DNA from: an uncultured archaeon
GTDB taxonomy: Archaea > Nanobdellota > Nanobdellia > Pacearchaeales > GW2011-AR1
Direction of reading: 5' to 3'
Assembly: GCA_902385635.1 (NCBI GenBank)
Contig: CABMGN010000008.1
Location: forward strand, 130,894-194,893
DNA: 64,000 nucleotides
The position numbers and the translations under genes were made by a program. Every line of letters starts with the position of its first letter. Within the stretch, counting starts at the first letter, position 1. The notes below the pieces were generated by a model, which saw nothing but the letters and a program-made list of their open reading frames with translations, was not told the origin of the DNA and did not search any database. Positions 51,576-63,711 of the stretch are shown in pieces.

Positions 51576-52634
51576 TTAAAAAAATCTTTTTATCTTCTCA
51601 AAGATTAATTCCAAAACTTTTATTGCAGAAGATCTTCTTCTCCAATCACTAAAAGAGAATGGCTGTGAGTGGGTAAGAGTTTCTTCAAAGTGATCTTTAA
51701 GGGCAAGAGAAATGTCTTTATTACGGCCAAGAAGATTTATTTCGAAATTATGAATAAGGCTTCTATAATCTAAATTGCTAGATCCAAGAATAAAAAAAGA
51801 ACCATCCACTATGAGAAGTTTAGAGTGAAGCATACCGGGTTTGTAATAGTAGATCTGAGCACCAACATTATTCAAAAAGCCGAGATACCTATTTCTAAGA
51901 ACATCTACAATTCTCCAATTAGATCTATACGGGAGAATAATTTTAATCTTAACTTTTCTTTTCACAGCATTCAAAAAAGCCCTTCTTATCCTAAAAGAAG
52001 GAATAAAATAAGGGGTCTCTATCAAAATTTCTTTCTTAGCTTTCTTGATAAGATGGACATACTTCTCCTCAGTATATCTTTTCAGGTCGGAGGGGATATC
52101 CTGAATTATCTCAAACTCTTCGTGAATAAACCTGAAAACTTTTTTAAGAGTAATCTGACCGTAGTTTCTCCACGTACTATTAAACGCTCTGACAAAATCA
52201 AAAGTTATATCTCCCTCAAGTCTTAAAACAAGTTCCCGCCAGTCAATAAAATCTTTAGTAATATTTATAGAACCGATATAGGATATTTTATTATCTATTA
52301 AAAGTAATTTCCTATGATCTCGTTCATGATTTTTGCTCACAATTCTCCAAGTATACTGAATTTCTCTAAAAAATCTGACTTCCCCCCCTACTTTAGTAAG
52401 TTCTCTAAAAAATCTTTCATCAACCCACGAGCCATAAGAGTCCAAGAGTATTTTTATCTTAACACCTTCTCTAGCTTTTTTCGTCAGAGCTTCTCTAAAT
52501 TCTCGGCCAACTTCATCATTTCGATATATATAATTCTCCAAGAAAATAAATTTCTTAGCCCCTCGAATATCTTCTAGCATCCGTCGGTAAATCTTAATAG
52601 GGTTTGAGAGAACCTCAAAGTTTTTAGCCACCAT
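51576..52634 (-). CDS. Phospholipase D-family enzyme (cardiolipin-synthase-like, two HKD motifs)
   Basis: 352 aa. HKD1 is DHRKLLLIDNKISYIGSINI and HKD2 is LHSKLLIVDGSFFILGSSNLD. There are no N-terminal TM helices. Confidence 0.75.
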   Translation of the reverse strand: MVAKNFEVLSNPIKIYRRMLEDIRGAKKFIFLENYIYRNDEVGREFREALTKKAREGVKIKILLDSYGSWVDERFFRELTKVGGEVRFFREIQYTWRIVSKNHERDHRKLLLIDNKISYIGSINITKDFIDWRELVLRLEGDITFDFVRAFNSTWRNYGQITLKKVFRFIHEEFEIIQDIPSDLKRYTEEKYVHLIKKAKKEILIETPYFIPSFRIRRAFLNAVKRKVKIKIILPYRSNWRIVDVLRNRYLGFLNNVGAQIYYYKPGMLHSKLLIVDGSFFILGSSNLDYRSLIHNFEINLLGRNKDISLALKDHFEETLTHSQPFSFSDWRRRSSAIKVLELIFEKIKRFF

Positions 52635-52671
52635 AGATAAAGCAATAGAAAAGGATATTAAAATTTATCAC

Positions 52672-53733
52672 TTAGTTATTTTTAGGATAAGCTTCATCAA
52701 TTAATTTTCTCTGTTTTTCTAACTTAGAACGAAGGGGGGATATAAATAAAATTATTTCTTCCGCAATACCCTGCTTTAGATCAATCGAAGATAACTTCTT
52801 ACTAGAAAAGGCTTTTTCAACTTCAAGGTAACTCTTAAATTCTATTTTTCCCCCGTATTTATCCGGGCGATTAATCACAAAGGGCCTATTCTTTTTTTCT
52901 AATTCTCTAAAAAGGATATATTTAAGGATTGCAAGTAAACCATTTCCTTCAACGATTCCATCAACACAGTAAGCTTTGTTTATTTTCTGTCTAATCACCT
53001 GATCTGAGTCCTCGAAATCTATTTTAGAATTTGGCTCAGAAGAGCTCATTTTTCCAGATTCGCTTAAACCCGGAATTAGTGGATTCATAAGATGAATCCT
53101 TTTCTCATAACCAACTGCAGGTAAAAATTCTCTCGCAAACATAAAAATCTTTCTCTGATCAACCCCCCCAAATTGAGCATCAACTTTAAGGTATACTTCA
53201 TCAAGTGCTTGGAGTATAGGATACAAAAGTCCGCTCATCTTAGGGTTTTCAAGTTGTTTAACAACTTCCGCCCCTGCTTTTTGTGTATCTTTTGTGGTAG
53301 CCAAGGCAGACATTTTGTAAACATCTAAAGTATACTTTTCAGAAAGCTGGAAATCTGTACCTTTCACAAATTTAAGCTTAGTTAAAGGAACCCCTGCAGA
53401 AGAAAGCATTTCTTTGATGAGAAATTCGTAATATTTTGTCCTCTTGTCTAATAAGTCCCAGGAAGTTTTCATATTATCAAGATATGCGTGAATGTTGGCA
53501 AAAAGAATGGTAACATCACAACCTGCTTCTAAAAAATCAGCAATCTTATACATCGGAACAAAATATCCCAGGTGGGGTTTTCCAGTTGGGGCAGTACCCC
53601 AGTATATAGAAAAACTTTTTTGTGACTTCAATTTTTTGTTTAAATCTTCTAAACCAACAACCTCTTGAAGATTCTTTGTTATAAGACTAGATTTTTCTTC
53701 AGTATTCAATTCTTTCTTTACAGGTTTACTCAT
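52672..53733 (-). CDS. tyrS: Tyrosyl-tRNA synthetase (archaeal/eukaryotic type)
   Basis: 353 aa. YWGTAPTGKPHLGY (HIGH-type motif), QFGGVDQRKI and KMSSS (KMSKS motif). Confidence 0.9.
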   Translation of the reverse strand: MSKPVKKELNTEEKSSLITKNLQEVVGLEDLNKKLKSQKSFSIYWGTAPTGKPHLGYFVPMYKIADFLEAGCDVTILFANIHAYLDNMKTSWDLLDKRTKYYEFLIKEMLSSAGVPLTKLKFVKGTDFQLSEKYTLDVYKMSALATTKDTQKAGAEVVKQLENPKMSGLLYPILQALDEVYLKVDAQFGGVDQRKIFMFAREFLPAVGYEKRIHLMNPLIPGLSESGKMSSSEPNSKIDFEDSDQVIRQKINKAYCVDGIVEGNGLLAILKYILFRELEKKNRPFVINRPDKYGGKIEFKSYLEVEKAFSSKKLSSIDLKQGIAEEIILFISPLRSKLEKQRKLIDEAYPKNN

Positions 53734-53771
53734 ATTCTAGCCAGCAGAAGGCAATATTAAAATGTTTTGAC

Positions 53772-54800
53772 TCATTCAGCAAGCATAACCCTATTTCTAC
53801 CAGATTCTTTAGCTTTGTAAAGTGCGCTATCCACTCTTTTAATAAAAGATTCTACATTTTCTTCTTGTTTTATTTCTCCAACACCCAAACTAACAGTAAC
53901 CTGTCTCTTAGCTTTTTCCGGATAAAATGTTTCAACAGCTTGTCTAAAAGTTTCAGCAGTAGTTATAGCTTCTTCTAAACTATTTTCCAAAATAAAAGCA
54001 AATTCTTCCCCCCCGTACCTACAAGCCCTAACCTTTCTAAACTCTGTAGAAATAAGTTGACCTAAATTTCTAAGAAGATTATCCCCTTCGACATGTCCGT
54101 AAGTGTCGTTATAACTCTTAAAGAAATCCAAATCCAACATAACTAAAAATATTTTATTTCCTTTTTCATACTCAGAATTTATAAGTTCAGTAAAATACCG
54201 TTTATTAAAGAGTCCAGTAAGAGCGTCTGTTACAGCTTTCTTGGCTTCCTTATCGTATAATTTATTATATAACTGAGTGATTGTTTGCTCCTTCAAACTT
54301 ACGGCTTGCTTAAGTTTTAAGTGATCAACCAGAGAAGCAGTTTGATTTGCGATTGTTCCAAGGAGCTTAGAAGAAGAATATGAAAAATTATAATCTCTAT
54401 TCATGACAACAATACAACCAATACATCCAGTATAAGTCATAAGCGGGGCGCTAATAAAACTTTTTATTCCAAAAAGTGAAGCCACGGTCCCGTATCTTGT
54501 TTCTTCTATAAGAAGAGGAGAAGCACTCAAGACAGTGTCATTCGCAATTGTTTGAACTAAATCATAAAAACCCGGTTCAAGAGAGTATACCCCCTCAAAA
54601 TTCCTCGCACGAAGACCTTCCTGATCTTTTAAAAAAATAAAAACATAATGGGTATTAAACTCACCAATAAGAATTTTTGCGATTTTATTTAGAGTAACAT
54701 CAATATTCTCAGTAGAGCTAGAAATTTCCTGAATAATTTTGATGATGCGAAGCTCTCTAGAGGTATAAACTAATTTTTTAAGAACATCTTCGTCAGGCAT
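53772..54800 (-). CDS. GAF-GGDEF diguanylate cyclase
   Basis: 342 aa. An N-terminal GAF-like sensor is followed by the canonical GGDEF domain: DALTGLFNKRYF, LVMLDLDFFKSYNDTYGHVEGDNLL, ACRYGGEEFAFIL and VSLGVG. No RxxD I-site is present 5 residues upstream of GGEEF. Confidence 0.8.
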   Translation of the reverse strand: MPDEDVLKKLVYTSRELRIIKIIQEISSSTENIDVTLNKIAKILIGEFNTHYVFIFLKDQEGLRARNFEGVYSLEPGFYDLVQTIANDTVLSASPLLIEETRYGTVASLFGIKSFISAPLMTYTGCIGCIVVMNRDYNFSYSSSKLLGTIANQTASLVDHLKLKQAVSLKEQTITQLYNKLYDKEAKKAVTDALTGLFNKRYFTELINSEYEKGNKIFLVMLDLDFFKSYNDTYGHVEGDNLLRNLGQLISTEFRKVRACRYGGEEFAFILENSLEEAITTAETFRQAVETFYPEKAKRQVTVSLGVGEIKQEENVESFIKRVDSALYKAKESGRNRVMLAE

Positions 54801-54865
54801 AAAGATCCATCAAAGAAACTCTTTTTAAGCATTGTCAAATTTTAGTATACAGATAGGATTAATCT

Positions 54866-57800
54866 CTAAAACCACTTCTGTAACCCTTCTTGTTTTTCTA
54901 TCTCTTTACCAAAAATGCTATCAATAGCTTCTTTAGTTAATTCTACGCTCTGCTTAATATACGGAGAAAGATTATATTTCTTAATTAAATCAAGAGCAGG
55001 ATCTAAATATTTTCTTATCCCCCCCTCGTGAATTGTGAAAATAATTTTACCCTTACACTTTGGACAAACACCCGAAAGGGGGGGTCTCCTCATAATCTCA
55101 TTACAATCAACACATCTAAAACCCTGCATTGAAAACTTTCTTAAATTACCCCTCATATCCGAGATAAAATGCCTCTCAATAACAAGTCTTGCAACATCAC
55201 TCTCAGTAACTGCTCTAATCTTTTCTACAAGTTCCATCTGGTGTTTTAATTTATCCTGCATGGTTGCAAGAGTTTTATAACTAGAACATAGAACACCATC
55301 ATTAAAATTAGAAGTATCATGAGTAAACCCGAAACCAACGAACGGATTTTTTCCTTCTTTCAAAATCTGCTTAACATTGTAAATCTTTACTTTAGAAGAG
55401 TGCTCCCTTGTTTCAGCCAAGCGATACATTTCAAGAGGATAATGTCCATCTTTAATAAACTCGAAATCTAAAATCTGATCATCAACTTCCCCAGCATCAA
55501 TTTTAGCATTTAAAACAAGAGGGGCGTCTTGAGTTCCACCCCTATGCCCCGGTAGAAATTCTCTAGAAAAATTAAGCAGAACATCTCCTAAAAGCATGAT
55601 AGCTGCCTCGTCACCATCACAATCTCTCCTCACAGCCGCATGCATAAAGGGGCTTGCAAATAAACCGAGAGTGTTAGAAAATCCTATAAATCTACAAACA
55701 ACTCCCGCGCAGTTATGGGGGGCCATGCATACCCCAAGATGGCCTATCAAGTCCTCCTTCTTTTTTATGTTATAAAAAGGTTGTAACCCATAGAACTTAA
55801 CTAAGAGGTCATCAATAAAATCACACACTTTATGAAAAACATCATCAGCCCTTTCATCCGGGGTATCGGTACAACTAGGCAAAAGAACATCATGAGGCAT
55901 CAATTCCAGAATTTGGTTCTCATCAACTAACTCTTTATCATAAATATCTAAGTCATACCCTAGTTCTCGAAGTTTTTTAACACTAACACCAATTTCCTTA
56001 GGTTTAAATGAAACTATAGGTAACTCCGTAGCATCAAATCTAACTGTTCCGTCCTTGTTTACCTGAAGATCATACTTTGCACGAAGGATACCCTTTTCTA
56101 AATGTTCAGTAGCGTGAGAATCTGAGGAAGTTCCTCTAATCCCTTTTATTAATGGAGGCAATTCTTCCCGCCTCATATTCAATTTCTTTAAAGCAGTTTG
56201 AAGATAATAATTAATATCCAAATTTTGTGAGCAATAGCAGCTACCTTCCTTTTCACATTCCGAAATATTTTTTTCAGAAGATTTTCTTCCAAGTTCATAA
56301 AAGTAATATTGTTTTTTTGCTGGAAACCCACAAGTTTCACAAGAAGGAAAAATAGTTTCTTTACTACATTTTTCACAGAAATAAAGAGGGAAATCTCCTT
56401 TGACAAAACCCTTCTCACACGCCGTATTCAAACTCCTTAATTTTCCACCCTCCCAACCCACGGGGAAGAGAGTATTTGGACTACCAGTAAGTTTTCTAAG
56501 TTTAGCCTTTTCCGGACGGCCCATCCTAGTTCCGATGAAATCTCCAGATTTGTCCTTAATAAAAAACTTAGAAAAAGAATTAACAACTTCTAAAATAGAC
56601 TTATCCTCAGTAAAGGCCGCCTCAAACAAATTCTTATCAAAAAGTTCAGAAAGAAAAAAGTCTACTCTGCTAGAAACAAGGTTAAAGTCCAAACCAAGAT
56701 TAGAAAAAAGAATCTTGGCTGCAGGCTCTCCAACAATAACATGTTCTAAAGAAAGATCGTGTTCAAGTCCTAACAGTTCTAAGGCTCTTTTACCTTCCTT
56801 AAATTTTTCTTGCTCTGCTTTATTGAAAGGCAAAATTATTTTTCCAGAAATTCTTGAGTATGAAAGCCAAGAGATAAGATTCAAAAATTGATCCTTAGAA
56901 ATTTCAGACCAATAAATAATAAATTTAGGGTTCAAAGGAATTTCATATTTCAAACTTATATCTGCGGCCTCTTCTAAACTAACTGAAAAAGGATTAATAA
57001 TTTTAGAGAACTCCAGGTCCTTCTCTGCCAGGTCTAGGTGCCACCACTCCTCAACATAACCTGGCTTAATTAGCGCGTGATTCCTATTTGCAAGATCGCT
57101 AAATGGAAAGAGGATATCCCCTAAGTAAATTATTTCTTCTATGTCTGAATAAACCTTTCTAGCCTCTTCAAGACTTTTCAATTTTCTTACATTTCCATTA
57201 AACAATTTTACAATCGGCCCGTCAACAACGTCTGAACTAGTGATAGCACAGCCCTTTGTTGGTTTCTCAATCTTCAATTGTGTTCCAATAGCAATAAAGT
57301 CGTCTGTAACTGCCATAGTGGCGGGATGTAACGAAGCAGCAGAAAATCCAGAAGTCCTTCCCCGGCCATACCTAAACCTAAACGCTCCCGAACGAGAAGG
57401 GTGTCCAAATACCGGTCTTCCAGCTACGAGATCTTTAATATAAGTAGGGCTAGAATCAGTTTTTCCAGTATCTCTCTTTTTGTGCAATTCAACATAATCC
57501 TTCAAAAAATCCCAATCAGTTAACTTAAATCCCTTCTCTCTTACAGAAGTAATATATCTCTGAATTTTTGGGGCTTTCTGCGCTAGACCCTCCCCAATAA
57601 CAAGGCAAAAACCACCACGAATAAAATTTGTTTCTATTCTGCTAAGATTTTTGTAATTTGAAACTTCTAATTTTTCAGAAGGTTCCCCATTTACTTGTAA
57701 AGGAATATTTCTAGCTAAAAAAAGGCACTCTTCTTCCGTCGGCATATACTGCAAGTTAGTAATTCTCTCGTGATAGTCCGCAAGTTCTGTTGCAGTTCTC

Positions 57801-58366
57801 TTAATTTCTTCTTCAGTAGGGTCATATTTTACAAAACCAAAAACTTCTCTAAGATGGTCTAGTATTACAAGAGAAAACGCTGCACCAGTACCTCCTGCGC
57901 TTCTAACCGGGCCAGAGTAGTAAGCGGAAAGGTATTCTTTTCCTTCCCTAGTTTTCATTATTTTAACTTCAGTTAGACCCTCGATAGGGCTAGAAACTAC
58001 TCCTAGAGTAATATATGCAAAAGCGATTCTTGTTCCCGCATCTATAGCCTGGATCAAGCTATCAAACTTACAAAACTTTTGCTTAGCTACTTCTTCAGCA
58101 ATCTGCAAACAAATTGCAGGGTCTAATTTCCCCCACTGCTTCTCAAGCTCGGTAATTCTCTCAGCAATACCCGCGCCCATCATCTGGGGATAAATAGTAG
58201 AAATTAAACCAACAACTTTCTCCGCCATAGACATAGCTAGAGGAATTTCAACTTTGCTTTTAGGATCTAGATTCTTACTTCTAGCTTCTTCAGCAATAAG
58301 ATAAACTCTATCAACGTCGGATTTCAAGTTTTTGAAATATTGTTCTGTGTTCATTTTATTGCTCAA
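54866..58366 (-). CDS. dp2: DNA polymerase II (PolD) large subunit DP2
   Basis: 1166 aa. The conserved N-terminus (YF..L...VDRVYLIAEEARSKNLDP...AMSMAEKVVGL), internal zinc fingers (CEKCSKETIFPSCETCG; CVDCNEIMRRPPLSGVCPKCKG) and DCDGDE. The contiguous length gives no sign of an intein. Confidence 0.92.
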   Translation of the reverse strand: MSNKMNTEQYFKNLKSDVDRVYLIAEEARSKNLDPKSKVEIPLAMSMAEKVVGLISTIYPQMMGAGIAERITELEKQWGKLDPAICLQIAEEVAKQKFCKFDSLIQAIDAGTRIAFAYITLGVVSSPIEGLTEVKIMKTREGKEYLSAYYSGPVRSAGGTGAAFSLVILDHLREVFGFVKYDPTEEEIKRTATELADYHERITNLQYMPTEEECLFLARNIPLQVNGEPSEKLEVSNYKNLSRIETNFIRGGFCLVIGEGLAQKAPKIQRYITSVREKGFKLTDWDFLKDYVELHKKRDTGKTDSSPTYIKDLVAGRPVFGHPSRSGAFRFRYGRGRTSGFSAASLHPATMAVTDDFIAIGTQLKIEKPTKGCAITSSDVVDGPIVKLFNGNVRKLKSLEEARKVYSDIEEIIYLGDILFPFSDLANRNHALIKPGYVEEWWHLDLAEKDLEFSKIINPFSVSLEEAADISLKYEIPLNPKFIIYWSEISKDQFLNLISWLSYSRISGKIILPFNKAEQEKFKEGKRALELLGLEHDLSLEHVIVGEPAAKILFSNLGLDFNLVSSRVDFFLSELFDKNLFEAAFTEDKSILEVVNSFSKFFIKDKSGDFIGTRMGRPEKAKLRKLTGSPNTLFPVGWEGGKLRSLNTACEKGFVKGDFPLYFCEKCSKETIFPSCETCGFPAKKQYYFYELGRKSSEKNISECEKEGSCYCSQNLDINYYLQTALKKLNMRREELPPLIKGIRGTSSDSHATEHLEKGILRAKYDLQVNKDGTVRFDATELPIVSFKPKEIGVSVKKLRELGYDLDIYDKELVDENQILELMPHDVLLPSCTDTPDERADDVFHKVCDFIDDLLVKFYGLQPFYNIKKKEDLIGHLGVCMAPHNCAGVVCRFIGFSNTLGLFASPFMHAAVRRDCDGDEAAIMLLGDVLLNFSREFLPGHRGGTQDAPLVLNAKIDAGEVDDQILDFEFIKDGHYPLEMYRLAETREHSSKVKIYNVKQILKEGKNPFVGFGFTHDTSNFNDGVLCSSYKTLATMQDKLKHQMELVEKIRAVTESDVARLVIERHFISDMRGNLRKFSMQGFRCVDCNEIMRRPPLSGVCPKCKGKIIFTIHEGGIRKYLDPALDLIKKYNLSPYIKQSVELTKEAIDSIFGKEIEKQEGLQKWF

Positions 58367-59915
58367 AGTCTAAAATTTTAATTGCACCTGTTTTAAGATT
58401 CAAAATAGGGACTTTACAAAAATCTGGAATAGCTCCCCTCTTTTCCTGATAAGCAGTCATTGATTCCCAAGAAGACACAGAAATAACTAATATGTTATTG
58501 TAATAAGTTATACCCGACTTATGGGTATGTCCCGCAAGAAATATATCCGGCACTGTTCGAATTATATGAGAATCTTTTTCTTGAGGAAAATACTGAGTAG
58601 AAGAGTGTGTAGGGCAAAGGTGCCTATTCTTAAGAAGATAAGTCATTACTAACTCCGGAGCATGCGCAGCTTTCTGCTTAATTAGGCTAGGTATATTATC
58701 TACGTAATGGAAAAAAGAGAATCCGTGATACGTCAAAGCATTAAATCCAGAAAAACCTTTTTTTGCAGCAAAATTAACTAAGGACGGATTTGTTGTAAAA
58801 ATTACATTTTTTAAATTATAGAGTGGCCAAGCATACTTTTCACTTATCATTGGTTGAGGTTCCATTAAACGTACTCCGTCGTGATTTCCGCTTGAGATAA
58901 TAATTTTAATGTCGGGTCTTATTTTTCCCAGAAGTTCTGCGGCTTTTTCAAAATGACTTTCTAAATCCGGAAGGCAAATTTGTTTTTCTTGATTGGGATA
59001 ATTACCAACACCCGTGATTACGTCCCCAATAACAAAGAGATATTTTATTTTTTGGACCTCGGGCGTATTTGGAACCTTACCATTGAGGTATTCTATAAAC
59101 TTTAGGAATTGTTCTTCCATAAAAAGTTTACTCCCAATATGCATATCCCCAATAAATACAGCATACTCTTCAACAGGGGATCTTTTCCGTTCAGGAAGTG
59201 ACGCTTCTGGAAGAATAACCTCATTAACAAAAAAGATCTCTCTGCTTCCAGCGCCCTTAAAACCAACAACACTATCTAAAGCGAGGTCTTCTGCTTTAGC
59301 ATAAAGCTCTTTTTTGTCTTTGTTTATTAAAACTTTTATTTTCCCAGTAAGATCCTCAACTTCTAACATAAGATTTTTGTTTTTAGTTACTTTTTTGTCT
59401 GCAATCAGACCAATTATAGAAATCCCCTGGCGGTCGTTAGAAATTTTATTTATTGAAACAAGGTTAGTAAGCTCTGAATGCTCTTGTAGGATGTTTCTTA
59501 ATTCAACGAATCTTCCTTTAAAGTACCCAACAAAATCAGAGACCGTTAGTTTTTTGCTAACAGGCTCAAAATTAGACAAAACCCTAACACTAGAAACTTC
59601 TTCAGGAGAAGTAGAAACCGCAGTAGAAGAAACTTCCTTACAAATTTCTATACTCAAACCAAGATTGATCCGAAGTTTTTCAAAATCTTGTCTGTATTGG
59701 GCTGGAAGAATTTCTAAGATTTGATTTACTTGTTCCCTATTCTCCAAAAGTATATGTTTTGTTAGAATTTTACTTGTTGGATTAGACTCTCTTACCTTCT
59801 CAATAATAAGCTTAGCCGACTCAAAGTCTTGGGTTTCACTAAACAGGCTAAGAACTTCTTTATCAACAAGCAAACCTTTCTTTAAGCAGTATGCTAGAAC
59901 TTCTTTTGTCTCCAC
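58356..59915 (-). CDS. dp1: DNA polymerase II (PolD) small subunit DP1 (3'-5' exonuclease)
   Basis: 519 aa. An OB fold plus calcineurin-like phosphoesterase motifs FIGDMHIGS, VIGDV, SGNHD and AGHTH. It overlaps DP2 by 11 nt. Confidence 0.88.
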   Translation of the reverse strand: METKEVLAYCLKKGLLVDKEVLSLFSETQDFESAKLIIEKVRESNPTSKILTKHILLENREQVNQILEILPAQYRQDFEKLRINLGLSIEICKEVSSTAVSTSPEEVSSVRVLSNFEPVSKKLTVSDFVGYFKGRFVELRNILQEHSELTNLVSINKISNDRQGISIIGLIADKKVTKNKNLMLEVEDLTGKIKVLINKDKKELYAKAEDLALDSVVGFKGAGSREIFFVNEVILPEASLPERKRSPVEEYAVFIGDMHIGSKLFMEEQFLKFIEYLNGKVPNTPEVQKIKYLFVIGDVITGVGNYPNQEKQICLPDLESHFEKAAELLGKIRPDIKIIISSGNHDGVRLMEPQPMISEKYAWPLYNLKNVIFTTNPSLVNFAAKKGFSGFNALTYHGFSFFHYVDNIPSLIKQKAAHAPELVMTYLLKNRHLCPTHSSTQYFPQEKDSHIIRTVPDIFLAGHTHKSGITYYNNILVISVSSWESMTAYQEKRGAIPDFCKVPILNLKTGAIKILDFEQ

Positions 59916-59964
59916 TCTTTGTTTTCCTCCAGATATTTAGTTTGTGAAAGTGAAGCTTAAATAA

Positions 59965-61224
59965 TTACTTATAGTCTAGTGAGTCCTCTATAATCCCTTT
60001 AACTTTCTCCATTACATTTTTTGATATCGCGAGCTTTATCTCTCTCATTCTTCCCCCACGCCCCTTAGAGATTACATTAACATTAATTATACCCAACATG
60101 TCAAATTCCTGAACAATATCAGAAACCCTTCTTTGAGTAAGGACCTCACACTTATTTGACTGACAGAGCTCCTGATAGACATTATAAAGATCTCCAGTAA
60201 ATATAGGTTCCGATTTAGCAGTTTTAAACCCGTTAGGATCTAAAGTATTCTGGATTACACCAGTTCTCTTCTCAGATAGTTTAATGATGGAGTATAAAAC
60301 TAGCTGAAACTGTTTGGGTTCTGTTCGTACTATATCTAAAATTTTATCCTTCTCAATCTTAGAGTTAGATTCGTCTATGTGAGAAAGGGAAATTTTTTTA
60401 GAATTATCTCTTTCCGCTAATTCCCCAGCCACCCGCAAGAGGTCTAAGGCTCTACGAGCATCCCCATGCTCCCTTGCTGCAAATGCAGCACATTTAGCAA
60501 TAACCCCTTCCTCAACAACCCCTTCTTTAAATGCTAATTTTGATCTTTTATTCAAAATCTCTTGCAACTGAACAGCGTTATATGGTGGGAAAATAAGCTC
60601 TTCTTCAGACAAACTACTTCTAACTCGAGGATCAAGTTCGTCTAAGAAGGTAAGATTATTACTAATACCAACTATACAAATCTGGCTTTTAGATAACTCA
60701 GAGTTAAGTCTTGTTAAATTATAAAGGAAGTCACTTGAAATTTTCTTAACAGCCTGATCTATTTCATCAAGGATTAACACAACCAATTGTTTCTTTGAAT
60801 CAATTAGCTCCAAAAATTTTGTATAAACTGCTTCTGTAGGTAAACCAGTAGTTGGGATTTCTCCCCCTAATTTTTTAATAAGTTCTGCGAGTATTCTATA
60901 CTCAGTGTCAGCAACTTTCTTAAGTTTACAATTAAGGTACTCTATTTTTAAAACAAAACCAGCATTCTTCTGCATTCTACTTATTAATTCGTCCTTCACA
61001 TAGAGAATTGACAGGGTTTTCCCAGTACCAGTCTTCCCGTAAAGAAAAAGGTTACTTGGTTTGTCTCCCCTAAGAACTGGCGCTAGAATAGAAGCTATCT
61101 GCCTTATTTGCTCGTCCCGATAAGAAACCTCTTCTGGTCTGTATGTGTGTTGTAAAATATTTTTATCTTTGAAAATATTATTCTGACTAAAAGAATCAAA
61201 AAGATTATCTAATTTGTTAACCAT
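59965..61224 (-). CDS. cdc6: Orc1/Cdc6 replication initiator
   Basis: 419 aa. YRDEQIRQIASIL, Walker A LFLYGKTGTGKT, Walker B LILDEID, sensor motifs (GDARRALDLLR) and a C-terminal winged helix. Confidence 0.92.
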   Translation of the reverse strand: MVNKLDNLFDSFSQNNIFKDKNILQHTYRPEEVSYRDEQIRQIASILAPVLRGDKPSNLFLYGKTGTGKTLSILYVKDELISRMQKNAGFVLKIEYLNCKLKKVADTEYRILAELIKKLGGEIPTTGLPTEAVYTKFLELIDSKKQLVVLILDEIDQAVKKISSDFLYNLTRLNSELSKSQICIVGISNNLTFLDELDPRVRSSLSEEELIFPPYNAVQLQEILNKRSKLAFKEGVVEEGVIAKCAAFAAREHGDARRALDLLRVAGELAERDNSKKISLSHIDESNSKIEKDKILDIVRTEPKQFQLVLYSIIKLSEKRTGVIQNTLDPNGFKTAKSEPIFTGDLYNVYQELCQSNKCEVLTQRRVSDIVQEFDMLGIINVNVISKGRGGRMREIKLAISKNVMEKVKGIIEDSLDYK

Positions 61225-61245
61225 CTCTTTTAATAAATTTCCTGT

Positions 61246-61253
61246 ATTTAATA
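61246..61253 (-). promoter_or_regulatory. TATA-box-like element upstream of orc1/cdc6
   Basis: The minus-strand TATTAAAT lies 22-29 nt upstream of the ATG at 61224. Confidence 0.45.
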
Positions 61254-61280
61254 GTTTATGTGAATGAAGGAAGTATAGAG

Positions 61281-61505
61281 ACTCACACCCTCATTGCTAG
61301 TGGAATTATTATCTATACTACTAACTTTTTTATAAGTATTTATTTATTATTATAAAGAAGAAAATAATTAATAAAAAATTAAGTTAAAATTTAATATAAT
61401 ATATAATATATAATATAAATATTTATAATATAATAATAAACAATTCATTTTTATTTTTTATTAATAAACATTTCTATTGGAAATGGGGGGGTGTGGGGGT
61501 TTTGG
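61281..61505. promoter_or_regulatory. Probable replication origin (oriC): AT-rich unwinding element flanked by inverted ORB-like boxes
   Basis: 61321..61470 contains only 9 G/C in 150 nt (hand count) and carries TAATATA-type tandem repeats. The left box is CACACCCTCAT...GCTAGTGGAAT (61284..61308). The right box is TTGGAAATGGGGGGGTGTGGGGG (61477..61499). ATGAGGGTGTG (reverse complement of the left box) and ATGGGGGGGTGTG (right box) form an imperfect inverted pair. The region is adjacent to orc1/cdc6. Confidence 0.6.
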
Positions 61506-61565
61506 TCTAAACCCTTTTTGTCGATGAAGTATATCTTTTCAACTCTATCTTTTTTTACAGAAAAG

Positions 61566-61573
61566 TTTATAAA
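61566..61573 (+). promoter_or_regulatory. TATA-box-like element
   Basis: TTTATAAA begins 29 nt upstream of the ATG at 61595. Confidence 0.5.
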
Positions 61574-61594
61574 GAAATCTCTTTTGATTTAATC

Positions 61595-61855
61595 ATGCAA
61601 GCAGAAAAAAACACATACGGTTCTCTCGTAGGAAAGATGGTTGTTACAAAAGAAGGTAAAAGACTTGGATTTGTTAGAGATATTACTTTCGAGACTGCTA
61701 CAGGTGAATTAATAAGCCTAGTCTTAAAAGACAGTACTTCTTACGCAAATAATCTTAACTTAGAGAGAGTTGGTTCAAACGATGGTTTAATTCCTTACAA
61801 TGCAATTATTGCTATTGGGGATTTCATAATCGTTTCTGAAGAAGACTTAATTTAA
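61595..61855 (+). CDS. PRC-barrel domain protein
   Basis: 86 aa. LVGKMVVTKEGKRLGFVRDITFETATGELISLVL...IPYNAIIAIGDFIIV is a typical single-domain archaeal PRC barrel. Confidence 0.65.
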   Translation: MQAEKNTYGSLVGKMVVTKEGKRLGFVRDITFETATGELISLVLKDSTSYANNLNLERVGSNDGLIPYNAIIAIGDFIIVSEEDLI

Positions 61856-61951
61856 GCAAATTCTTTTTAATATTCTTTCTTATTTGAAAATCTCTTTCTT
61901 ATTCTAAATTACTAACCAAATCTTTAAAAACAAACTAAGAGTTCATCTCCT

Positions 61952-62356
61952 ATGAAAATACTTGCTTTCAATTTTGAGAAGCTTTCTGCAGAACGCCTTT
62001 CAAATACTAAAGACAATATAAAAGTGGGAACCCATGTTGATATCTCAGACATTTCTGAGGTAAAAGCAGAACTTCTTTCTCCGTCTGGGCTTATTCTTGG
62101 AGTTAAATTTAAGTTCTCTTTAGATTACGCTCCAAACTTTGCTAAAGTAGAGATTGCAGGCCATTTCCTTGTTGAAGTGGATAAGTCTCTTGGAGAAAAA
62201 ACCTTAAAAGAATGGAAAAATAAAAAGTTAACAGACGAGATACAGTATTCTTTAATTAATGTGATTTTAGAGAAGTCAACCCTTAAGGCTCTTGATTTGG
62301 AAGAGCAGATAGGCATTCCCTTACACTTCCCTATGCCTTCTTATAAGAAAGAGTAA
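61952..62356 (+). CDS. Hypothetical protein
   Basis: 134-aa ORF with a correctly spaced CTTTAAAAA at 61922..61930. No family motif recognised. Confidence 0.4.
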   Translation: MKILAFNFEKLSAERLSNTKDNIKVGTHVDISDISEVKAELLSPSGLILGVKFKFSLDYAPNFAKVEIAGHFLVEVDKSLGEKTLKEWKNKKLTDEIQYSLINVILEKSTLKALDLEEQIGIPLHFPMPSYKKE

Positions 62357-62400
62357 GTTTATACCGAATAACTTTTATACCTCTTATTTCTTACATATTA

Positions 62401-62712
62401 ATGAAAATTTCTAAACTAAAGCGAGATAAGATTGCTGAGCAAATTTTAGCACATCTTTATACCTTATCCCCCTCCTCAGTATTTACCTCTTACATTGCCA
62501 AAGAGCTTGCTAGAGATGAAGAATTTACAAAAAAGATATTAACTGACTTGAAAAAGAAGAAGTTGGTATTAGAGATAAAGAAAAATCCTAACGGAGTAGA
62601 TTACCTTCGAAGATCTCGTTGGAAATTAACTCCCGACGTTTTTGAAGTTTATAAAAAGAAACAGGCTATTTCAAAGTCTACTGAAAGTCATTCTGAGGAT
62701 TTGTTATATTAG
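62401..62712 (+). CDS. Small winged-helix DNA-binding protein
   Basis: 103 aa. IAEQILAHLYTLSPSSVFTSYIAKELARDEEFTKKILTDLKKKKLVLEIKK is a wHTH-like pattern. TTTTATAC at 62373..62380 gives the standard promoter spacing. Confidence 0.5.
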   Translation: MKISKLKRDKIAEQILAHLYTLSPSSVFTSYIAKELARDEEFTKKILTDLKKKKLVLEIKKNPNGVDYLRRSRWKLTPDVFEVYKKKQAISKSTESHSEDLLY

Positions 62713-62754
62713 ACTAGCTAGCATCTTTTTATAGCCCGACACCCTATTGTCTTA

Positions 62755-63414
62755 ATGGGTGAGATAAAAGAGGATATACTGGATTTACAGAATCAAATAG
62801 ATTTTCTGAAGAGGGAATTACTTCATTTAAAAAGGGAAATCTCTTCCCTAAAAGACTTACTCTTAAATTATTCTTCAAAAACTGATCCGCAGAAGGGGGG
62901 TCTTTCACCAGCAATTGTTGATTTTAGCCAGACAGACAGACAAAGAGCACCAATCAATAATAGCCTTTTTAAGCCGTTAAAAGCCAAGATTCTTGGTATC
63001 TCCATAGGAAATGGGGGGGTTCCAGCAGACAGAAAGACAGACCAGCAGACAGATAAATTAGGGGTATTTGACCAGAGAGACCCCCTAAAGGAAGCTCCAA
63101 AGTTATTAGAATCCCTCGACGATCTCCGTCGGGAAATACGCCTTAAATTTAAACAACTTACAGAACAGGAGTTCCTAGTTTTTTCAGCTATATACCAATT
63201 GGAGGAAGAGCGTGGATCCTGTGATTATAGGCTTCTGGCTACCCACTTAAACCTAACTGAGAGTTCTATACGAGATTATGTTGTTAAACTAATCAAGAAG
63301 GGAATTCCCGTCGAGAAAACAAAATTAAATAATAAATCAGTTACGCTCTCTATATCAAAAAATTTAAAAGTAATTTCTACTCTCCCGACGATATTTCAGT
63401 TAAGAAACTTATAG
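62755..63414 (+). CDS. Coiled-coil plus C-terminal winged-helix DNA-binding protein
   Basis: 219 aa. An N-terminal coiled coil (LDLQNQIDFLKRELLHLKREISSLKDLL), a central GNGGVPADRKTDQQTDK segment, and a C-terminal HTH (LTEQEFLVFSAIYQLEE...YRLLATHLNLTESSIRDYVVKLIKKGIPV). TTTTTATA lies at 62726..62733. Confidence 0.5.
   Translation: MGEIKEDILDLQNQIDFLKRELLHLKREISSLKDLLLNYSSKTDPQKGGLSPAIVDFSQTDRQRAPINNSLFKPLKAKILGISIGNGGVPADRKTDQQTDKLGVFDQRDPLKEAPKLLESLDDLRREIRLKFKQLTEQEFLVFSAIYQLEEERGSCDYRLLATHLNLTESSIRDYVVKLIKKGIPVEKTKLNNKSVTLSISKNLKVISTLPTIFQLRNL
63007..63020 (+). repeat. Second copy of the origin G-string box GGAAATGGGGGGGT
   Basis: The 14-mer is identical to 61479..61492 in the oriC right box. 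It is followed by two copies of CCAGCAGACAGA (63022..63033 and 63042..63053) spaced 20 nt apart. Confidence 0.7.
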
Positions 63415-63711
63415 AAAGCTTCTTCTAAGTAGTTATTCTGTTTAACGAATATCTAATTCTCTCTTTTCACCCGTGTTTTTGCCCAGATCAAAGCTCTTTT
63501 ATTCTATCTTTAACTTTCTCAAATTCTTTGGTAATTTCAAACAAATCTTCACTTTTTCTCTGCTTTTTATAAAAAAAGGACATATTTTCTTTAATTATAA
63601 CTCTCATTTTTTATGTTTACCCCCAAAAAGCTCACTTTTTATCTTTTAGGCTGATCTTTTTGTTAGTTTTTTAGTATTTTTTAATTAGCTTAACTCTCAC
63701 TTTCGGTCTTT

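Follow-up and report, generated by a model that had tools for sequence, protein, structure and literature searches.

The window analyzed here, a stretch of 64,000 nucleotides (nt), covers positions 130894-194893 of contig C8 (263 kb) in the genome assembly of an uncultured archaeon of the Pacearchaeota (DPANN); the assembly comprises 594 kb in 9 contigs and is estimated to be 78.6% complete with 0.14% contamination. A 370-nt gap in the window, located upstream of the orc1/cdc6 gene at positions 61225-61594, is very probably the chromosomal replication origin, of the oriC1 type, i.e., dependent on Orc1 and on origin recognition boxes (ORBs). An origin is the best explanation for this region because of its sequence anatomy with matches to the ORB consensus, its uniqueness in the genome, the conservation of the same arrangement in approximately 75 of 80 related loci, the presence of a single initiator gene of the Orc1-1 type, and a coincident break in A/T strand composition. 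Together with the linkage of cdc6 to the genes for family D DNA polymerase (PolD), these features support the proposal of the initial annotation, which was made from the letters of the window and its open reading frames (ORFs), that an origin lies here. The parts of the predicted origin and the adjoining genes on its left side are listed below (bit scores refer to the ORB matrix described in the following paragraph).

61326-61468, no strand: predicted duplex unwinding element, 143 nt, approximately 95% A+T, the most A+T-rich stretch of the genome
61394-61438, no strand: 7-nt periodic array of ATATAAT inside the AT tract (Tandem Repeats Finder: 6.1 copies, 82% matches, score 58)
61280-61307, minus strand: orc1-proximal ORB, AATTCCACTAGCAATGAGGGTGTGAGTC, 15.2 bits, third in the genome, with the G-string towards orc1 and the dyad half towards the AT tract
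61470-61500 (matrix match 61470-61497), plus strand: orc1-distal ORB, ATTTCTATTGGAAATGGGGGGGTGTGGG(GG), 35.6 bits, top in the genome
59965-61224, minus strand: orc1/cdc6, 419 amino acids (aa), Orc1-1 type (Pfam Cdc6_lid 6.7e-26, Cdc6_C 1.4e-23, AAA)
58356-59915, minus strand: PolD subunit DP1 (Pfam DNA_pol_E_B, Metallophos), directly downstream of orc1
54866-58366, minus strand: PolD subunit DP2 (Pfam PolC_DP2_N, central and catalytic domains)

The AT tract is bracketed by CACACCCTCATTGCTAGTGGAAT at 61285-61307 and TTGGAAATGGGGGGGTGTGGGGG at 61478-61500 which, read on opposite strands, give ATGAGGGTGTG and ATGGGGGGGTGTG. The inverted, ORB-like flanks with G-strings that were pointed out in the initial annotation are thus found where it had placed them, and by their consensus match they are genuine ORBs. 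The distal ORB has its dyad half towards the AT tract and its G-string away from it, so that the two boxes form an opposite-polarity pair around an AT-rich tract, as is characteristic of origins of the oriC1 type. Both strands of the whole genome were scanned with a position weight matrix derived from 88 boxes, all of them from relatives. This ORB motif search, which had been suggested as a check on the original proposal, yielded seven matches above 8 bits; the three strongest, at 35.6, 15.6, and 15.2 bits, are clustered in 1.75 kb around the tract, and two of them are the flanking boxes. The consensus of the 88 boxes, ATTTCCATAAGAAATAAAGGGGTGAGGG, and the published consensus for Archaea, CTTCCAGTGGAAACGAAAGGGGT, have in common the TTCCA..GGAAA dyad and the GGGGT string, and the distal ORB is identical to the published consensus for Methanomassiliicoccales, GTTCCAGTGGAAATGG-AGGGGT, in 18 of 22 positions (PMC4153887, Table 2; Pelve et al.). 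No further box above 8 bits was detected in 61150-61650, i.e., there is no array of mini-ORBs of the kind typical of Thermococcales. A search for a second origin revealed neither another ORB cluster nor an AT tract of comparable kind in the 594 kb available for this incomplete genome.

The AT tract itself stands apart from the rest of the genome. A recount of positions 61321-61470 gives exactly 9 G/C in 150 nt, the same number as in the initial annotation. Across the 594 kb scanned, the minimum G+C content per 150 nt is 8, in the segment that starts at 61326, and the next-lowest locus has 26. The description of the tract as being built from TAATATA-like repeats holds for the 7-nt array; given that this array is confined to 61394-61438, it is true for about one third of the tract. 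In nearly all relatives, an equivalent AT tract of 42-733 nt is found upstream of orc1, the length of the tract sequence differing between genomes. In many relatives (loci L002, L005, L008, L022, L027, L035, L037, and others), a TATA-like motif, CTTTTTAAA or CTTTATAAA, abuts the distal ORB on the AT-tract side, 3-4 bases before its dyad; the counterpart in the window is TTATTAATAAACA at 61457-61469.

The survey of relatives covered 80 orc1 loci, 65-75% identical at the amino-acid level over the best aligned segment, nearly all of which are labeled as metagenome-assembled genomes of Pace-, Woese-, or Nanoarchaeota (DPANN), with a few labeled otherwise. A profile search identified boxes in 75 of these 80 loci, and an alignment of 64 relatives on the edges of their AT tracts revealed a box on the side away from orc1, frequently accompanied by an inverted copy on the side near it. 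The resulting layout, in the orientation of orc1, is one distal ORB on the minus strand, the AT tract, one or two proximal ORBs on the plus strand, and orc1, and this arrangement of inverted ORBs around an AT tract beside orc1-DP1-DP2 recurs in approximately 75 of the 80 Pace- and Woesearchaeota loci. Conservation of the module in related genomes, which is expected of an oriC1-type origin, is accordingly observed. In the 813 kb of related loci, there are 196 matches of at least 12 bits, all but about five of which belong to the proximal, distal, or far cluster (the last of these is described below), and none of the 196 lies downstream of the orc1 start. Most relatives possess two proximal ORBs, approximately 98 nt apart and 30-250 nt upstream of orc1; the window has one, and the distance from its AT tract to orc1 is just 101 nt.

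The initiator gene next to the tract is a typical archaeal orc1/cdc6. Its product scores 404.5 bits on TIGR02928 (cut-off 181.3), and the best matches in the PDB are Sulfolobus Orc1-1 (2qby_A, 1.3e-99) and Aeropyrum ORC1 (2v1u_A, 5.6e-87), the two Orc1 proteins known to have been crystallized on ORB DNA. There is a single Cdc6_C match in the whole assembly, so that orc1 is single-copy as far as the assembled sequence goes. The Pfam matches bear out the assignment of the three genes as orc1/cdc6, DP1, and DP2 in the initial annotation, and orc1 is followed by DP1 on the same strand in all 67 relatives with enough sequence. The divergence of transcription from the gap that was also reported there is readily seen: 51576-61224 holds six ORFs, every one of them on the minus strand, and 61595-63414 holds four, every one on the plus strand. 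The likeness that it drew to Pyrococcus is documented for Thermococcales, in which cdc6 is followed by both PolD genes and an ORB-bearing origin lies directly upstream (PMC5663688).

The way in which such an origin would work can be projected from well-studied archaeal systems. In oriC1 of Sulfolobus (Saccharolobus), inverted ORBs around an AT-rich unwinding element are considered to direct MCM loading between the boxes, and every ORB is bound by a single Orc1 monomer in a defined polarity (PMC12141716; PMC6742236). By analogy with this origin and with Pyrococcus oriC, the single Orc1/Cdc6 of the archaeon studied here would bind as monomers to the two inverted ORBs, at 61280-61307 (minus strand) and 61470-61497 (plus strand), whose dyad halves face the 143-nt, approximately 95% A+T element and whose G-strings point outward. 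The two opposed Orc1 molecules would then load MCM onto the AT tract, which would melt, and a third ORB, 1.5 kb off within a winged-helix gene, would serve as an accessory Orc1 site. Because the proximal box is located 56-83 nt upstream of the orc1 ATG, Orc1 bound to it probably also regulates its own promoter.

The cumulative GC skew of C8 falls monotonically, with no turn at 192.2 kb, whereas in Z-curves of the large contigs the AT and amino/keto components turn at the site. In the absence of a turning point in the GC skew, the asymmetry was resolved by codon position and at four-fold degenerate sites, using our own longest-ORF gene calls (93% coding). With gene orientation removed, the A/T asymmetry at third positions is approximately +0.25 in all 24 of the 8-kb bins to the left of the gap and, with few exceptions, approximately -0.06 in those to the right. 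For the 288 genes of C8, the best single change point of the four-fold-site A/T asymmetry is the gap between orc1 and the gene for a PRC-barrel protein, the asymmetry being +0.29 to +0.33 on the left (standard error approximately 0.015) and -0.03 to -0.07 on the right (+0.31 to -0.05 overall). The strand leading away through orc1 has an excess of T and G, which is the polarity that the usual bacterial and Pyrococcus rule assigns to an origin. The skew analysis proposed in the initial annotation thus gives a divided answer: the AT skew turns and its best change point is the gap, but the cumulative GC skew shows no inflection. A skew inflection elsewhere on the chromosome, which had been named there as evidence against an origin, is not seen for the AT skew; the GC skew has no inflection anywhere on C8, so that this comparison is inapplicable to it.

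The composition of contig C6 is like that of the strong, orc1-side arm. Along C2 (positions 1-147363), the A/T asymmetry passes smoothly from -0.26 to +0.04 over approximately 110 kb, with GC asymmetry at +0.14 to +0.22 throughout, and this region resembles a diffuse terminus, seen only in the A/T signal. The majority direction of local transcription was considered as the cause of the GC bias and rejected, as the gene-strand majority flips between the 1-70 kb and 70-192 kb parts of C8 and the GC polarity remains unchanged.

For comparison, four-fold-site asymmetries were obtained in the orientation of orc1, and the comparison included 11 genomes in which both arms were sampled; G005 contributed only its orc1-side arc. 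The values for the relatives (whole-arc means in the case of G002) are as follows, with the non-orc1 arm given first.

G002 (511 kb): A/T +0.085 and -0.19; GC -0.07 and +0.26
G003 (457 kb): A/T -0.05 and -0.10; GC +0.06 and +0.13
G006-G011 (six genomes): A/T -0.08 to +0.06 and -0.05 to -0.25; GC mostly positive and positive
G001: A/T -0.03 and +0.01; GC +0.17 and -0.01
G004: A/T +0.02 and +0.01; GC +0.10 and +0.07

The near-complete genome G002 displays the classical two-way pattern. Both asymmetries switch sign at the site homologous to the gap, and circular fits with two change points, made independently, place the AT boundaries at 312.7 and 47.7 kb and the GC boundaries at 310.4 and 53.6 kb, with the orc1 start at 315.1 kb. 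One boundary is therefore 2-5 kb from the homologous site and the other about half a circle away, which yields arcs of approximately 246 and 265 kb, with a two- to fourfold stronger signal on the orc1 arc. In G003, neither asymmetry changes sign anywhere on the contig, and both are strongest just past the origin on its orc1 side. G002, G010, and G011, like the present genome, are strongly skewed. The Orc1 proteins of the unskewed genomes G001 (loci L082-L091 and L152-L161), G004 (L112-L120), and G005 (L121 and L202-L218) are 76-77% identical to the one encoded in the window, so that closely related lineages differ widely in mutational asymmetry.

Several observations weigh against the assignment of the gap as the origin. 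In addition to the failure of the cumulative GC skew to turn, the four-fold-site GC asymmetry on C8 is negative on both sides (-0.15 to -0.06), and the A/T step is one-sided, approximately 0.3 on the orc1 arm and 0.05 on the other. No A/T asymmetry is detectable in G001, G004, and G005, and the GC step at the same module of G001 has the opposite polarity. The genes on the non-orc1 side mostly point towards the origin: 49-70% of their coding length is on the orc1 strand (at least 57% in 9 of 10 relatives), compared with 52-78% on the orc1 side. An origin beside cdc6 that is just as canonical is dispensable in Thermococcus kodakarensis and is not used there (PMC5663688), which means that sequence anatomy alone does not prove use. 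Finally, because the genome is 78.6% complete, it might contain a second origin or a second copy of orc1. The strong composition break, in turn, argues for long-term use of the origin in this genome.

Part of this evidence could be accommodated if the site were a real Orc1 origin from which replication is strongly asymmetric, such that the fork on the orc1 side copies most of the chromosome and the other fork is late, slow, or abortive, with one-way replication as the extreme. The GC asymmetry keeps one sign across the origin on C8, across the diffuse AT transition on C2, and around the whole 457-kb contig of G003; A/T skew is stronger on the orc1 arm than on the other in 9 of the 11 genomes, by a factor of 2 to 10; and the genes of both sides lie mostly on the orc1 strand (49-78% of coding length), all of which fits such a mode of replication. 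The arcs of G002, bounded by AT and GC switches at the origin and about half a circle away, are nevertheless nearly those expected of two forks, and in the genome studied here the strong AT arc (the left part of C8, C6, and the start of C2, approximately 320 kb) amounts to about half of the estimated genome size. Pure one-way replication as a general model is rejected by the paired sign switches of G002. A simple mixture of one-way and two-way replication predicts the same attenuation of the AT and GC signals, and G002 conforms, with a two-way share of approximately 0.68 from both; the mixture is rejected for the present genome (approximately 0.6 from AT and 0.2 from GC) and for G003. On balance, strongly asymmetric replication appears unlikely, and we favor an oriC1-type origin without this additional assumption.

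A different possibility is that the boxes are Orc1 operators in a divergent, AT-rich promoter region, with replication starting elsewhere or depending on recombination as in T. kodakarensis. The gap does contain candidate promoter elements for both divergent genes, identified from sequence.

61245-61253, minus strand: candidate orc1 TATA box, TATTAAATA as read on that strand, approximately 25 nt before the ATG
61566-61573, plus strand: candidate TATA-like box, TTTATAAA, approximately 25 nt ahead of the PRC-barrel ATG

The position of the proximal box just upstream of the orc1 promoter, the unused canonical origin of T. kodakarensis, and the three relatives without A/T skew would all fit a purely regulatory role. 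A promoter, however, does not explain the sharp four-fold-site A/T break at the gap, with values uniform over 192 kb, or the paired sign switches of G002; moreover, the AT tract goes far beyond what a promoter requires and has no equal in the genome, and the 594 kb offer no other ORB cluster or comparable tract. Operators without an origin are therefore improbable. A search of 60900-63500 against Rfam gave no match at E-values up to 1, and an RNA gene in the gap was rejected.

The polarity of the skew also bears on the suggestion that replication ends here, or that forks are trapped here by bound Orc1, which would presuppose a reversed skew polarity in these archaea and for which the reverse GC step at the module of G001 could be adduced. 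The unwinding element, the inverted ORBs with inward dyads, and the adjoining initiator gene all speak against it, and the AT and GC steps of G002, as well as the AT step in the present genome and in eight others, follow the rule of G and T excess on the leading strand; we consider a terminus very improbable. It is harder still to credit that the composition break is an assembly artefact, created by the joining of unrelated pieces at the low-complexity AT tract. Assemblers do fail at AT-rich tracts of low complexity, and approximately 15 of the 80 related contigs stop 80-460 nt upstream of orc1, which indicates that short-read assemblies tend to break at the tract. All 54 relatives that have at least 2.5 kb upstream of orc1 share one gene order across the gap, which excludes a chimeric join; furthermore, the one-sided step appears at the homologous site in independently assembled genomes, and the estimated contamination is 0.14%. 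The oriC1-type origin remains the reading that we adopt below.

Beyond the pair of flanking boxes, the remaining one of the three best matches in the genome lies within a protein-coding gene to the right of the gap.

62998-63025, plus strand: far ORB, ATCTCCATAGGAAATGGGGGGGTTCCAG, 15.6 bits, second in the genome, 1.5 kb away, oriented like the distal ORB, in coding sequence
62755-63414, plus strand: gene for a 219-aa coiled-coil/winged helix-turn-helix protein, with the far ORB in the linker-coding part; same position in 53 relatives
63026-63055, plus strand: CAGA-type tetranucleotide repeat, directly after the far ORB, with a second patch at 62929-62940

The 219-aa protein consists of an N-terminal coiled coil and a C-terminal winged helix; among 20 aligned homologs, HTH_36 is matched by all 20 (best 3.4e-07) and DnaD_N by 16. 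The protein itself gives generic winged-helix matches only and has no solved relative at E < 0.01. The two patches of CAGA in this gene are the only ones in the whole genome. At the homologous place in approximately 40 relatives, the sequence is (A/T)TTTCCACTGGAAATGAAGGGGTTCCAA followed by (CAGA)6-8, and the conservation of the far ORB with its CAGA repeat extends to each of the three positions of the codons. In the relatives, the far ORB, TTTCCACTGGAAATGAAGGGGT, is identical to ORB3 of 'Ca. M. alvus' in 19 of 22 positions. The stretch encodes ISTGNEGVPTDRQTDRQTD, the sole conserved peptide of an otherwise variable linker. In columns with a conserved amino acid, the share of sequences with the commonest synonymous third base is 98% in the far-ORB stretch (12 columns) vs. 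59% in the winged-helix domain (48 columns), which means that the constraint acts on the DNA.

In the plain reading, the far ORB may be an accessory Orc1 site; in a bolder one, it may be a polar barrier to forks. The bolder reading leads to the suggestion that Pacearchaeota may fire a canonical Orc1/ORB origin asymmetrically, with the far ORB and the CAGA repeat holding back the fork that moves in the opposite direction. Asymmetric firing, in which the fork through orc1 is dominant or earlier and the other is delayed, slower, or often lost, would explain the one-sided A/T footprint, the one-sign GC asymmetry, and the preponderance of genes on the orc1 strand, yet we regard this scenario as unlikely.

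The gene nearest to the origin on the right side is the following.

61595-61855, plus strand: PRC-barrel gene (Pfam PRC 5.7e-10), the first gene diverging from the origin

A PRC-barrel gene is present upstream of orc1 in each of the 54 relatives mentioned above, on the strand opposite to orc1 in all but one of the 45 loci listed. The order across the gap is 219-aa winged helix-turn-helix protein, 103-aa protein, 134-aa protein, PRC-barrel protein, origin, orc1, DP1, DP2. The four small divergent genes, PRC-barrel, 134-aa, 103-aa, and 219-aa, occur in the same order in 53-63 relatives; the 134-aa protein has no family match, and the 103-aa protein is HTH-like. An integrated or plasmid-derived segment to the right of the origin was considered and rejected, given that the four genes have the same order and position in these 53-63 relatives; the synteny across the gap likewise excludes the right-hand genes as an integrated element. 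They are a conserved, origin-flanking set of DNA-binding proteins rather than an island.

In its overall design, the origin is ordinary, belonging to the Orc1/ORB class with the cdc6-DP1-DP2 linkage of Thermococcales and without mini-ORB arrays. It resembles Sulfolobus oriC1 in the two inverted ORBs around an AT-rich element with a further, distant ORB (PMC12141716; PMC6742236), and its Orc1 is closest to Sulfolobus Orc1-1. Sulfolobus has three origins, as opposed to a single initiator gene and an apparently single origin in the present genome; in addition, the third ORB is located in coding sequence and is followed by the CAGA repeat, and the AT tract is far more extreme. With Pyrococcus and Thermococcus, it shares not only the gene linkage but also the single origin and single Cdc6. 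The origins of Thermococcales, however, contain long ORBs and several mini-ORBs spread over approximately 640-900 bp, in contrast to the two flanking ORBs and one far ORB found here, and the dispensable origin of T. kodakarensis differs from the present one, at which there is a strong composition break. Compared with the ORBs of Methanomassiliicoccales, the flanking-box consensus of the clade is more A/T-rich in the dyad (TTTCCATAAGAAA) and has an extended GTGNGNG tail. Within DPANN, an origin beside cdc6 has been located from GC skew in Candidatus Forterrea (Diapherotrites) (PMC5905446; PMC7111523). The cumulative GC skew of that genome is classically peaked, whereas in the present one GC runs through and only the A/T asymmetry breaks, on one arm. 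In the literature, we found no paper on the origins of Pace- or Woesearchaeota.

To our knowledge, no DPANN archaeon from this group has been cultured, so that origins defined by sequence are the sole handle on chromosome copying in these ultra-small cells. The module described here offers an anchor point for genome coordinates and for estimating growth rates from read depth, and it provides a clade-wide ORB consensus and a small soluble Orc1 for three defined boxes. The parts that deserve the attention of specialists are the asymmetric footprint and the ORB embedded in coding sequence. The one-arm A/T break, with GC bias running through, recurs in most of the relatives examined and may go beyond the routine. 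Unequal usage of forks at an otherwise canonical origin, if true, would be a new mode of replication for cellular chromosomes in Archaea.

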